DNA from: a virus
Taxonomy: Duplodnaviria > Heunggongvirae > Uroviricota > Caudoviricetes
DNA: 64,000 nt
IMG/VR virus record: IMGVR_UViG_2721755651_000007
Strand: one strand, 5' to 3'
Both the position numbers and the translations under genes were made by a program. Under the pieces are notes generated by a model. That model saw nothing but the letters and a program-made list of their open reading frames with translations. It ran no database searches and had not been told where the DNA came from. Below, piece by piece: positions 11,274 through 11,912 of this stretch (the stretch's first letter is position 1; each line of letters starts with the position of its first letter).

Positions 11274-11912
11274 ATGGAATTTAAAGATTTACCTCCTTCA
11301 ATCCAGGAGATTGCAGCACACACACTTCGTCATCGTCTGAACGAACTTGAATTGGAATCGGTAACGAAAAAAGACACTGATAATATGGCTCGTAATGTGC
11401 GCGATGCGTTTACCGGATTGTATTTCTGTGCGTCTATAAATAAACACGACTCAGAGAGTGTGGCAAATAAAATTGCAGAAACGACAGCGCAAAACATCAA
11501 TACGAAACCAACGGAAGAAGAAATTGATCAGTTTGCTCATGATGCTGGTTTAAAAAACAAGAAAGAAAAATCGCCATATGCGGGGAACATGTTTGTTTAT
11601 GACAATCTCATCAGAATTCGTGGCGAAATTCCGGCGGAATACCTGGCAAGAGTCCATCAGGCATTGCTTAAAAATTTGGAAACAGAATTATTTGATGGCA
11701 ACACTAACGGTTTCTTCATGGTATCAGGCCTTGAGAAAGACTGGGATGCAGAAAAACGCTGGAATGTTGCTACATGGTTATTCAGTAACAGAGCCGCTGC
11801 ACTGGAAGCTTCGGCATGTATTTGCGGCCTGTTCTTAACAGACCACAAATATAATCTGGATGTGTACAGTTATATTTACGCTGAACACGGTCCACTCTGG
11901 ATTGACTGGTAA
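11274..11912 (+). CDS. hypothetical early protein with conserved N-terminal module and unique C-terminal domain
   Basis: MEFKDLPPSIQE...DNMARNVRDAFTGLY shared with 58462..58869; C-terminal ~150 aa unrelated. Confidence 0.45.
   Translation: MEFKDLPPSIQEIAAHTLRHRLNELELESVTKKDTDNMARNVRDAFTGLYFCASINKHDSESVANKIAETTAQNINTKPTEEEIDQFAHDAGLKNKKEKSPYAGNMFVYDNLIRIRGEIPAEYLARVHQALLKNLETELFDGNTNGFFMVSGLEKDWDAEKRWNVATWLFSNRAAALEASACICGLFLTDHKYNLDVYSYIYAEHGPLWIDW

Follow-up and report, generated by a model that had tools for sequence, protein, structure and literature searches.

Replaceable two-gene cassettes with a shared N-terminal module and a convergent partner in the dicBF operons of two lambdoid prophages

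DicF and DicB, the small RNA and the protein encoded by the dicBF operon, affect cell division, metabolism and phage resistance, and earlier work has linked them to virulence regulation. In the Qin prophage, the operon reads dicA-ydfA-ydfB-ydfC-dicF-dicB-ydfD, and its transcripts are processed by RNase E and RNase III (PMC5069750). When the Qin operon is compared with two regions of the 64,000-nucleotide stretch of viral DNA analysed here (IMG/VR record IMGVR_UViG_2721755651_000007; the window), the flanking genes are alike (a DicA/cI-type repressor, YdfA/DUF1391, YdfC, DicF, DicB, DUF1482/YdfD and a RecE-like exonuclease), and the same operon and the same slot between ydfC and the DicF leader can be recognized. 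In K-12, the DicF leader directly follows ydfC and the slot is empty, without any cassette; thus, the module gene and the reverse gene that occupy the slot in the window represent a clean two-gene indel. This extra, hypervariable insert is absent from the account of dicBF in PMC5069750, and a literature search found no published work on the cassette genes.

The dicBF slot in two prophages

The two loci belong to two Qin/Rac-like lambdoid prophages of E. coli. Their module genes fill the same slot of a dicBF (early-left) operon under repressor control, after ydfA/ydfC and ahead of the DicF leader. The order of repressor, promoter-like site, ydfA/ydfC, module gene, DicF and dicB equals that of K-12 Qin save for the inserted pair. 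The features of locus 1 (prophage 1) are as follows:

9845..10135, minus strand: cro-like gene, divergent from the repressor
10179..10817, plus strand: cI/LexA-type repressor (HTH and S24 peptidase; open reading frame list)
10902..10930, plus strand: promoter-like site (TTGACC-17-TAAACT; consensus scan)
11029..11262, plus strand: YdfA-like DUF1391 gene, immediately 5' of the module gene (Pfam PF07151, E=1.2e-29)
11274..11423, plus strand: module (residues 1-50) of the 212-aa protein, forming the left border of the island (BLASTP, profile search)
11424..11912, plus strand: variable tail "A" of the 212-aa protein (phrog_2151 matches the full length)
11913..12122, minus strand: "revA", 69 aa, abutting the forward stop codon (PGAP CDS WP_001133037.1; phrog_4274, E=1.4e-51)
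12135..12460, plus strand: conserved DicF-precursor leader, right flank of the variable island
12461..12512, plus strand: canonical DicF sRNA (Rfam RF00039, 75 bits against a gathering score of 48)
12687..12875, plus strand: dicB, cell-division inhibitor, downstream in the same operon (RefSeq annotation transferred; ATG read)

Those of locus 2 (prophage 2) are the following:

56874..57101, minus strand: cro-like gene, divergent from the repressor
57178..57585, plus strand: DicA-like repressor (open reading frame list and annotation; length and layout as K-12 dicA/dicC)
57684..57713: counterpart of the locus 1 promoter-like site, at an equal relative position
58221..58439, plus strand: ydfC homologue, immediately 5' of the module gene (RefSeq "protein YdfC"; near-identical to K-12 YdfC)
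58462..58611, plus strand: module of the 135-aa protein, residues 1-50 (BLASTP)
58612..58869, plus strand: tail "B-short" of the 135-aa protein, equal to the X subdomain (phrog_1363; phrog_23433 over residues 55-128)
58847..59080, minus strand: 77-aa reverse gene (PGAP CDS WP_000920491.1; phrog_10348, E=1.1e-47)
59081..59414, plus strand: conserved DicF leader (sequence comparison)
59415..59464, plus strand: variant DicF copy (Rfam RF00039, 43.5 bits, below the gathering score of 48, E=1.6e-8)
59639..59827, plus strand: dicB (RefSeq annotation transferred; ATG read)

The dicB, DUF1391 and ydfC genes are annotated in identical RefSeq loci. The stretch from the leader to the dicB start has a mean identity of 92% across locus 1, locus 2 and K-12 Qin, and the DicF copy of locus 2 keeps the seed region and has an altered terminator hairpin. 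The site at 10902..10930 lies where a repressor-controlled early promoter, analogous to PdicB/PL, is expected, and it is a candidate only, as the number of sites found by the consensus scan is at the chance level; on the reverse strand, the same scan found no promoter above chance at either locus. The genes had initially been assigned to an early operon, and this agrees with their position in dicBF, where a cI/DicA-type repressor and a promoter-like site precede them.

Some annotations differ in extent. RefSeq carries a shorter "LexA family protein" at the 10179..10817 locus, and PGAP calls a shorter form of the DUF1391 gene (11110..11262). Neither protein is related in sequence to YdfB or YdfC of K-12, and we therefore discarded the idea that the module protein could be an extended YdfB.

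The module, its tails and the island borders

Both forward open reading frames are present at the coordinates given by the initial annotation; in RefSeq/PGAP, 11274..11912 is hypothetical protein WP_000394548.1 (212 aa) and 58462..58869 is hypothetical protein WP_000394552.1 (135 aa). At locus 1, an alternative start is possible at 11262; the sequence supports 11274 as the true start because the MEFKDLP start is conserved across the family and GAGG lies 7 nt upstream. BLASTP aligns the two products without gaps over residues 1-50, with 27 of 50 positions identical (54%; 76% positives; E=1e-17), so the figure of approximately 60% over approximately 52 residues given at first was essentially right, if slightly high. 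Past residue 50, BLASTP finds no significant similarity between them, consistent with the description of their C-termini as unrelated.

Judged from its distribution and conservation, the module is a real, unnamed domain. In an exhaustive profile search, it occupies residues 1-51, always at the N-terminus, in 82 clusters at 50% identity, and stand-alone modules of 52-65 aa without a tail are common. This search was used because querying a word-indexed protein database with the 59-aa module brought up no more than 21 fragments, all short or frameshifted; similarly, a degenerate DNA pattern for MEFKDLP...Q.IAA had a single match among species-representative genomes, in one Xenorhabdus contig. In the AF2 model of the 212-aa protein, the module is predicted to form a two-helix hairpin (helices 8-24 and 32-55, pLDDT ~72-76). 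It is amphipathic and has no hydrophobic segment by a crude test, with a maximum 19-residue Kyte-Doolittle value of 1.16-1.58. In family comparisons, its dN/dS is 0.2-0.44 with dS saturated. The concern that the N-terminal similarity might be only a 5' recombination scar without conserved structure was not borne out, as the two window copies differ with dS=0.88 at dN/dS=0.40 and the module recurs in approximately 80 clusters.

Behind this one module, 21 tail clusters are found, and the survey of homologues for C-terminal variants recovered at least 12 unrelated tails fused to it. Module and tail subtypes are shuffled: tail A occurs on at least four module subtypes, and one module subtype carries at least six tails. 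Thus, the polymorphic architecture proposed in the initial annotation holds, and of its "C-terminal domains", the unrelated tails stand and the single domains do not, since the tails are mosaics of smaller subdomains. Tail A consists of a linker (residues 51-100), which is poorly constrained (dN/dS 0.4-0.76), and an alpha/beta C-domain (residues 101-212), for which dN/dS is 0.14-0.20; phrog_2151 covers residues 1-212 of the 212-aa protein (E=1.8e-147). The structure check suggested at the outset was only partly informative: the C-domain of the 212-aa protein is modelled confidently (AF2, pLDDT 75-86), the model of the 135-aa protein is unusable (pLDDT 41.6), and the forward proteins gave no informative fold match. 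The 135-aa protein matches phrog_1363 over residues 1-130 (profile positions 1-138 of 139, E=4.8e-47), and its alignment with 201-aa relatives parts ways after approximately residue 128; from these sequences, it derives from the 201-aa "B-long" type by truncation, with the Y subdomain gone.

The borders of the variable region are sharp. The island spans exactly from the module/tail junction to the start codon of the reverse gene. Compared with an F-type locus, locus 1 is 90-100% identical up to approximately +147 nt and again from approximately +850 nt, which corresponds to the start of the reverse gene, and the sequence between these points is unrelated. In phage Evi, compared with the locus 2 type, the module differs at 40 of 150 nt, the tail at 2 of 255 nt and the reverse open reading frame at 2 nt; a divergent module beside a near-identical tail implies a crossover at the module/tail junction. 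An invertible segment of the Mu G or shufflon type was rejected because no inverted repeat joins this junction to the right border; moreover, no recombinase is annotated nearby, and the reverse open reading frames have their own SD-ATG.

Convergent genes, their pairing and possible roles

The initial annotation listed a convergent minus-strand open reading frame behind each module gene; both are present, and the description "of unknown significance" can be replaced, as they are real genes by sequence criteria, co-vary with the C-terminal end of the forward protein and are paired with it across distant phages. The open reading frame 11913..12134 likely starts at M5 (12122, giving 69 aa), with GGAGGA upstream, as in PGAP and phrog_4274. 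The resulting revA product is basic (pI 9.7) and evolves with dN/dS of 0.19-0.26 at dS of 0.34-0.55. The 77-aa protein is also basic (pI 9.5); its gene overlaps the forward 3' end by 23 nt and starts at a conserved CAGGAGGGTGA-ATG site, and the same ribosome-binding site serves other reverse families. At least 12 unrelated reverse families are known, all starting at SD-ATG sites at the right border. In every locus examined, the strand of the partner gene is opposite to that of the forward gene, and a convergent partner is present in all 36 distinct forward-tail types surveyed. The 3' ends of the forward and reverse coding regions abut or overlap (0-131 nt), and no terminator was found between the convergent genes at either locus.

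Among GenBank phage records, revA has no match (tblastn), and the 77-aa protein has only near-identical copies. No transmembrane segment is predicted in any forward or reverse product examined. Searches of Pfam, NCBIfam, PADLOC and PDB sequences with the module, the tails and ten of the reverse proteins returned no match above the noise level; the reverse proteins have no Pfam, PADLOC or NCBIfam match and hence none to SieB or other known exclusion proteins, and the searches of Pfam, NCBIfam, PADLOC and PHROG revealed no recognizable toxin, antitoxin, defence or anti-defence domain. The cassette proteins are annotated only as hypothetical, with no assigned function, and from their sequences, they look like a matched protein pair.

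Comparison across Escherichia, Shigella, Edwardsiella and Salmonella elements shows that each reverse gene remains paired with the most C-terminal subdomain of its forward protein. The Y subdomain and rev63 occur together in the E. coli 201-aa type, a Stx1c phage, Edwardsiella phage EPP-1 and Shigella phage SfII, with identities of 44-51% and 35-53%, respectively, and the forward N-termini at these loci differ or lack the module altogether. Similarly, tail A adjoins revA in 68 of 69 IMG/VR loci, and besides E. coli prophages, this pair is found in a Salmonella satellite-like island that has neither DicF nor DicB. In addition, the "VYHxTMVKALR" tail and a 100-112-aa reverse protein are kept together in two lineages with differing module subtypes, and a module-only gene and phrog_17494 are kept together at 50% and 30% identity.

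Based on this pairing, we tentatively prefer the reading that the cassettes are cognate, oppositely expressed protein pairs that are replaceable in the dicBF operon, and we give it somewhat less than an even chance. Each locus is a replaceable two-gene cassette. The forward protein has three parts, namely, the helical-hairpin module of approximately 50 residues, which may be a common oligomerization or adaptor domain, optional middle subdomains and a C-terminal subdomain; the reverse partner is a small, predicted soluble protein with a conserved ribosome-binding site on the right-hand border of the island. The C-terminal subdomain and the reverse protein would bind each other as cognate partners. 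The convergent layout may set their expression in opposition: in the lysogen, the reverse gene would be active, and the forward gene would be switched on only upon loss of the repressor, when early transcription would run antisense through the reverse gene. Opposite expression and cognate binding would therefore make an antagonistic pair, as we propose, with a lysogen-expressed effector (exclusion or toxic) set against an early-expressed neutralizer, or the converse. Cassettes may move between prophages through homologous recombination, for which the module (left) and the DicF leader (right) offer conserved flanks. On the other hand, the pairing could reflect linkage alone, because adjacent sequences are co-inherited anyway. 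Forward genes also persist without a partner: in L100-type loci, revA is deleted and the forward gene remains, and ORF16 of a Stx phage is a module protein that lies without a reverse open reading frame among the exo, ssb and Ea22-like early genes. The tail type of ORF16 does have a reverse open reading frame in a dicBF-type locus. Furthermore, as the 135-aa protein lacks Y and faces an unrelated 77-aa gene, the cognate logic would be broken or degenerate in locus 2.

A serious possibility, if on balance an improbable one, is that the slot is a recombination hot spot with independent cargo, where morons are inserted or exchanged. In that case, the reverse genes would be independent morons expressed in the lysogen, and the module gene would be a small early gene with no relation to them. 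The tails would be tolerated in-frame fusions to whichever small early gene happened to follow, and co-variation would be a matter of physical linkage within the exchanged DNA. The sharp island boundaries at conserved flanks and the empty slot of K-12 are in accord with this, as are the partnerless forward genes and the B-short tail, which indicates that the reverse gene can be replaced with most of the tail kept. In addition, tail subdomains occur as stand-alone phage proteins (the phrog_23433 family for X; Y alone in SfII), and another element, a 172-211-aa reverse gene, sits in the neighbouring leader in L100/L101. However, at least four subdomain/reverse-gene pairs are kept down to 30-53% identity despite reshuffling upstream, one pair also occurs in a different kind of element, and all 36 surveyed tail variants have their convergent partner in the same overlapping geometry. 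Moreover, at least 12 independent in-frame fusions, with purifying selection where it can be tested, are hard to explain as neutral accidents.

It is unlikely that the forward proteins act on their own as polymorphic effectors of host takeover or anti-defence, with a module that docks on a common host or phage target, tails that are alternative effector or decoy domains in an arms race, and reverse open reading frames that are incidental. The early-operon position beside the host-manipulating DicF and DicB, the modular, shuffled architecture and the Stx phages that carry a module protein alone are consistent with such a role, yet the resemblance to takeover or anti-defence proteins that the initial annotation had seen found no counterpart in Pfam, NCBIfam, PADLOC, PDB sequences or folds, tail-less modules are common, the reverse genes are conserved, selected and near-universal, and the pairing outlasts module loss. 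Lowest in probability, and very unlikely, is a regulator of dicBF at the RNA level, in which convergent transcription would be what counts, by lowering read-through into the toxic DicF/DicB segment of the operon or by inducing its cleavage by RNase III, and the reverse sequence would be secondary; the position directly upstream of the DicF precursor, the overlapping ends without a terminator and the known RNase E/RNase III processing are in its favour, but the reverse open reading frames are under purifying selection as proteins with SD-ATG starts in at least 12 families, pairs occur in elements without DicF or DicB (the Salmonella island, SfII and EPP-1), and K-12 runs the operon without a cassette.

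Returning to cognate pairs, a fuller picture, which we regard as rather doubtful, is that they form an unrecognized class of phage-borne convergent antagonist pairs. A lysogen-expressed effector (abortive-infection, exclusion or toxin-like) would be opposed by a neutralizer in the C-terminus of a modular early protein, induction or infection would flip the balance through binding and antisense transcription, and cassette exchange would diversify the pairs in lambdoid phages and satellites of enterobacteria; in EHEC, they would lie directly upstream of DicF/DicB. EHEC strains have several copies beside DicF and DicB. DNA matching the two loci at any coverage is found in approximately 4,700 of 5,426 complete E. 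coli genomes, most of this match being probably to the conserved repressor, DicF and dicB flanks. The layout provides a search rule: at the edge of the DicF leader, look for a small convergent gene with its own SD site opposite the module or another early gene. This rule yields more than a dozen unrelated small-protein pairs that are testable for toxicity, neutralization and phage exclusion. If these are cognate antagonists, they represent a new genetic architecture for prophage conflict systems and a guilt-by-association handle for finding more; otherwise, the locus remains a recombination hot spot with sharp borders that is informative on mosaicism and gene fusion in lambdoid early regions.

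Comparison with known systems

The window proteins are clear members of existing PHROG families, the forward proteins among phrog_2151, 1363, 9419, 6937 and 33007 and the reverse proteins among phrog_4274, 10348, 2605, 7249, 17494, 34441, 10133, 28250 and 8894. All of these families are listed as "unknown function", and the forward proteins are split by tail, so that the shared module and the pairing are unrecorded there.

Polymorphic toxin-immunity systems (CdiA-CT/CdiI, Rhs and colicins) are alike in having a conserved N-terminus, a swappable C-terminus, a small neighbour that changes with it and exchange via the conserved part. However, the window proteins have neither a secretion or trafficking domain nor a recognizable toxin domain; they are small, cytoplasmic, phage early proteins, and their partner is convergent rather than co-directional and downstream. 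Membership in this group is not supported. Similarly, in type II toxin-antitoxin systems with modular antitoxins, as in the window, the C-terminal-most segment tracks the partner and the N-terminal domain is exchangeable, whereas the window genes are convergent instead of forming a co-directional bicistron, show no known toxin or antitoxin fold and no DNA-binding domain, and match no toxin-antitoxin family in Pfam or PADLOC.

With regard to geometry, lambda cII/oop RNA and the RalR/RalA type I toxin-antitoxin pair of Rac are convergent units with overlapping 3' ends, located in early regions of phages, in which one partner limits the other, the antagonist being a non-coding RNA. In contrast, the reverse unit of the window encodes a protein under purifying selection, and, with no predicted transmembrane segment, none of the products is a small hydrophobic toxin peptide of the type I kind. 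In P22 sieB/esc and in BstA/aba, a cognate element allows the phage itself to grow lytically despite an exclusion function that the lysogen expresses, and the location is early-left. SieB is a larger membrane protein, whereas the window cassette proteins are small and soluble, and no sequence similarity connects them with either system; it is in the early-left location and in the concept, as proposed for the window cassettes, that these cassettes resemble sieB/esc and BstA/aba.

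Two cassette loci in the dicBF operon

The forward proteins of the two loci share a module (the N-terminal ~50 residues) followed by a variable tail, and the initial annotation had described unrelated C-termini and a small convergent minus-strand ORF behind each forward gene. Both features hold. The 212-aa and 135-aa products align without gaps over residues 1-50 with 27/50 identities (E=1e-17), with no significant similarity elsewhere in the same alignment, and the reverse genes are present at both loci:

11274..11912, + strand: forward gene of locus 1, ORF of 212 aa
11913..12134, - strand: reverse gene of locus 1, abutting the forward stop codon
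12461-12512: DicF of locus 1 (Rfam, 75 bits)
58462..58869, + strand: forward gene of locus 2, ORF of 135 aa
58847..59080, - strand: reverse gene of locus 2, overlapping the forward gene by 23 nt
59415-59464, + strand: variant DicF of locus 2 (Rfam, 43.5 bits, below the gathering score of 48)

For the reverse gene of locus 1 the probable start is the ATG at 12122 (69 aa): GGAGGA lies upstream of it, and both PGAP and phrog_4274 begin there. The forward proteins of the window are acidic (pI 5.2-5.3) and the reverse proteins basic (pI 9.5-9.7), and no membrane segment is predicted in any forward or reverse product. Sequences identical to both loci occur in the chromosomes of E. coli O157:H7, O121 and other STEC, where all four cassette genes are labelled 'hypothetical protein'.

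Both loci are the dicBF operon of Qin-type cryptic prophages, the counterpart of the lambda early-left operon, with DicA as repressor (PMC5069750). With the RefSeq annotation added, both loci show a minus-strand cro-like gene, a cI/DicA-type repressor and a promoter-like site; next is YdfA (DUF1391) in locus 1, or a 99-aa ORF and YdfC in locus 2. The module gene and the small gene convergent to it follow in both, and after a long conserved leader come DicF, DicB, DUF1482 and a RecE-like exonuclease. In K-12 the leader lies directly 3' of ydfC, so the module gene and reverse gene form a clean two-gene indel; K-12 YdfB and YdfC themselves were rejected as module homologues, their sequences being unrelated. 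Across the leader, DicF and the sequence up to the dicB start, mean identity among locus 1, locus 2 and K-12 is 92%, which makes the cassette a hypervariable island inside a conserved operon. Its edges are sharp: when an A-type locus matching locus 1 exactly is set against an F-type locus, identity is 90-100% between 300 nt upstream of the forward ATG and +147 nt (the module end), the sequences are unrelated from there to about +850 nt (the reverse gene start codon), and similarity resumes beyond. Neither boundary inverted repeats nor a nearby invertase exists, which excludes an invertible segment. The locus is a replaceable two-gene cassette of real genes in an early operon.

Other features of this neighbourhood were also observed. 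The variant DicF keeps the canonical 5' seed region, and its terminator hairpin is rewritten, the changes mostly compensating one another; this variant sRNA may be functional and differ in stability or termination. The immunity/early-left junction accumulates conflict modules: a prophage with the 201-aa cassette (L007) has a PaaA2/ParE toxin-antitoxin pair between repressor and ydfA (2694-3172), and L250, another locus, carries a HigB-type TA in this area. In the E. coli prophage loci L100 (3799-4434, minus strand) and L101 (3799-4317, minus strand), a 172-211-aa gene between the forward gene and dicB occupies the region of the DicF leader in other loci; it belongs to phrog_1244 (unknown function), resembles a coiled coil with a CxxC...CxxC zinc ribbon, and looks like a second reverse-oriented moron slot. 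Both of these loci also carry an internal deletion in revA, the 69-aa reverse gene.

Elsewhere in the window, two sok antitoxin RNA matches (3764-3938 and 52149-52298, both minus strand; 113.5 and 103.9 bits) indicate a hok/sok-type type I TA locus in each prophage region. AgvB (anti-GcvB sRNA, 56.6 bits, at threshold), STnc100 (175 bits) and two tRNA genes cluster at 46911-47522, as is usual for the sRNA/tRNA islands in the late regions of EHEC prophages. An ALIL pseudoknot (6415-6531, minus strand, 121.5 bits), the frameshift signal of an IS3-family insertion sequence, places an IS element a few kb from locus 1. Prophage 1 (13153-14397, plus strand; L001 4554-6101) appears decayed: in L001, the identical RefSeq locus, the RecE-family exonuclease is annotated as a partial pseudogene and the integrase as frameshifted. 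The 823-aa exonuclease of prophage 2 (60108-62579) is intact.

The module and its exchangeable tails

The module has no match in Pfam, NCBIfam, PADLOC or PDB sequences, and PHROGs divides the forward proteins among at least five families with residues 1-50 common to all. A three-sequence profile searched against 1.84 billion representatives matched 82 clusters, including a handful of long repetitive proteins that match through internal repeats only; in nearly all the remaining clusters the module lies at residues 1-51, and many members are stand-alone proteins of 52-70 aa. Its consensus is MEFKDLPxxxQxIAAxxL, a variable loop, and (E)PAKxLARxVRxAFxxLY. In the AF2 model of the 212-aa protein, helices at residues 8-24 and 32-55 (pLDDT about 72-76) precede a disordered linker and an alpha/beta C-domain at residues 101-200 (pLDDT 75-86). 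It had been considered that the N-terminal likeness might be a mere recombination scar; the divergence between the modules of locus 1 and locus 2 (dN=0.35, dS=0.88) and the dN/dS of 0.2-0.44 across subtypes speak against a recent one, and the module is a real though unnamed domain, diverged and under selection. It also seems to extend beyond Escherichia and Salmonella, the sole species-representative genome matching the strict module DNA pattern being a Xenorhabdus stockiae contig (L015, 1094-1137, minus strand). One 149-aa protein (P0189) joins a YdfC-like N-terminal half to the module, here at residues 92-140; this fusion of adjacent dicBF-operon genes suggests that YdfC and the module may be functionally linked.

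A survey for further C-terminal variants yielded 21 tail clusters from the post-module regions, at least seven of which recur in E. coli. Tail A (212-aa type) occurs on at least four module subtypes, and one module subtype carries at least six tails. Compared with phage Evi, the locus 2 type has 40/150 nt changed in the module, but the tail (2/255 nt) and the reverse ORF (2/231 nt) are nearly the same, which puts a crossover at the module/tail junction. The C-domain of tail A is under purifying selection (dN/dS 0.14-0.20 at dS 0.5-0.75), whereas its linker, which is shared with tail F while the C-domain is not, is relaxed (dN/dS 0.4-0.76). The 135-aa protein (B-short) derives by truncation from the 201-aa type (B-long): they align collinearly up to about residue 128, past which the 201-aa type has the Y subdomain and the 135-aa type runs into the 77-aa reverse gene. 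Subdomain X (residues 55-128 of the 135-aa protein) matches a separate 92-aa phage family, phrog_23433.

Convergent genes and their forward partners

The reverse ORFs are genes and a constant feature of the cassettes. All 36 distinct forward-tail variants among the loci fetched have a convergent ORF, 45 aa or longer and in most cases SD-led; usually it overlaps the forward 3' end (by no more than 120 nt), and otherwise it abuts or sits just downstream.

Forward types and their convergent reverse ORFs
Forward type: reverse ORF
A (212 aa): 69 aa
B-short (135 aa): 77 aa
B-long (201 aa): 63 aa
C (126 aa): 73 aa
D (133 aa): 64-76 aa
F (112-119 aa): 64 aa
121 aa: 66 aa
186 aa: 80 aa, zinc-ribbon-like
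130 aa: 79 aa
107 aa: 97 aa
87 aa: 89 aa
122-124 aa: 100-112 aa
129 aa: 99 aa
Module-only (52-65 aa): 59-61 aa

The reverse families have no Pfam match and all fall in PHROGs of unknown function. Unrelated families share start sites at the right border (...CAGGAGGGTGA(A)ATG or ...GGAGGATAAAATG), and revA, the 69-aa partner of tail A, has dN/dS 0.19-0.26 at dS 0.34-0.55. In the type D (133-aa) cassette (L010, 3362-3680, minus strand), the reverse gene appears split into a 27-codon ORF from the conserved SD-ATG (MDKKQIEALQSIIEKQDEAIRILFISH*) and an out-of-frame 64-76-aa ORF; this could reflect either pseudogene formation by frameshift or programmed frameshifting.

The forward C-terminal subdomain stays with its convergent partner over long evolutionary distances, and four forward/reverse pairs persist together at deep divergence. 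First, the Y subdomain (..IISSxLLEVMKSELExHNIKPTPxxLRWVMxII...) accompanies rev63, the family of the 63-aa reverse protein, in the E. coli 201-aa type, Stx1c phage phiSTEC1589, Edwardsiella phage EPP-1 and Shigella phage SfII; across these, Y is 44-51% identical and its reverse partner 35-53%. The two are convergent in every element (overlap 23 and 33 nt in the two cases measured), and the N-terminus ahead of Y varies between module plus X, a D-like segment, an E-like segment, or nothing. The last case is SfII (L245, about 2690-2900, minus strand), in which an unannotated ~70-aa ORF (MTARRPREEKVGIVRNQADILKISSELLGVLKSELTAHGIEPTDENLSWVLSIIQQSLKPSLSKLFIE) between the cI terminator and SfII_36 is a stand-alone Y subdomain opposite its rev63-type partner, SfII_36. 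Second, tail A and revA occur together in E. coli, an Escherichia sp. and a Salmonella island with integrase, Ash and derepression-type genes (satellite-like) that is without DicF or DicB; revA adjoins tail A in 68/69 IMG/VR loci. Third, the 'VYHxTMVKALR' tail and its 100-112-aa partner are found in E. coli (L249) and, on a different module subtype, in the L102 lineage (BLOSUM62 score 242 over 90 residues). Fourth, the module-only gene and phrog_17494 are paired at 50% and 30% identity, one example lying in a K-12-like DicA-YdfA-YdfB locus. The pairing predates the shuffling. Three exceptions were found: L100-type loci have an internally deleted revA beside an intact tail A, Stx-phage ORF16 (P13374) has no reverse ORF, and the window B-short has lost Y and faces an unrelated gene.

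Possible function and known systems

The cassette is a genuine feature, more structured than was first seen from sequence alone, and we place it with polymorphic partner cassettes or prophage hot spots. Our preferred reading, put forward tentatively, is that each forward protein and its reverse protein are cognate partners expressed under opposite conditions. In lysogeny the reverse gene would be active; after derepression it would be the forward gene, with early transcription then running antisense through the reverse gene. This arrangement would make the pair behave as an effector and its neutraliser, with the module as a common oligomerisation or adaptor domain. The main rival, possible if somewhat doubtful, is a recombination hot spot that holds its contents together by physical linkage alone; the sharp island edges and the three exceptions fit such a site, and the four deeply diverged pairs fit cognate partners better. 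Two further readings are less well supported. The forward proteins are unlikely to be stand-alone takeover or anti-defence effectors; host takeover or anti-defence had been proposed from the variable C-termini, and sequence and fold searches gave no match to a known protein of either kind. A purely RNA-level part in dicBF control is more improbable still for genes with such low dN/dS, even beside the DicF leader.

No paper on these genes was found in the literature searched. By analogy, the closest functional counterparts of the architecture would be polymorphic toxin-immunity cassettes, or TA modules whose antitoxins are modular; unlike those systems, the cassette has no toxin, antitoxin or secretion domain, and its partner is convergent where theirs is co-directional. 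Lambda cII/oop and Rac RalR/RalA are convergent, and the cassette resembles them in this layout but differs in that its putative antagonist would be a protein.
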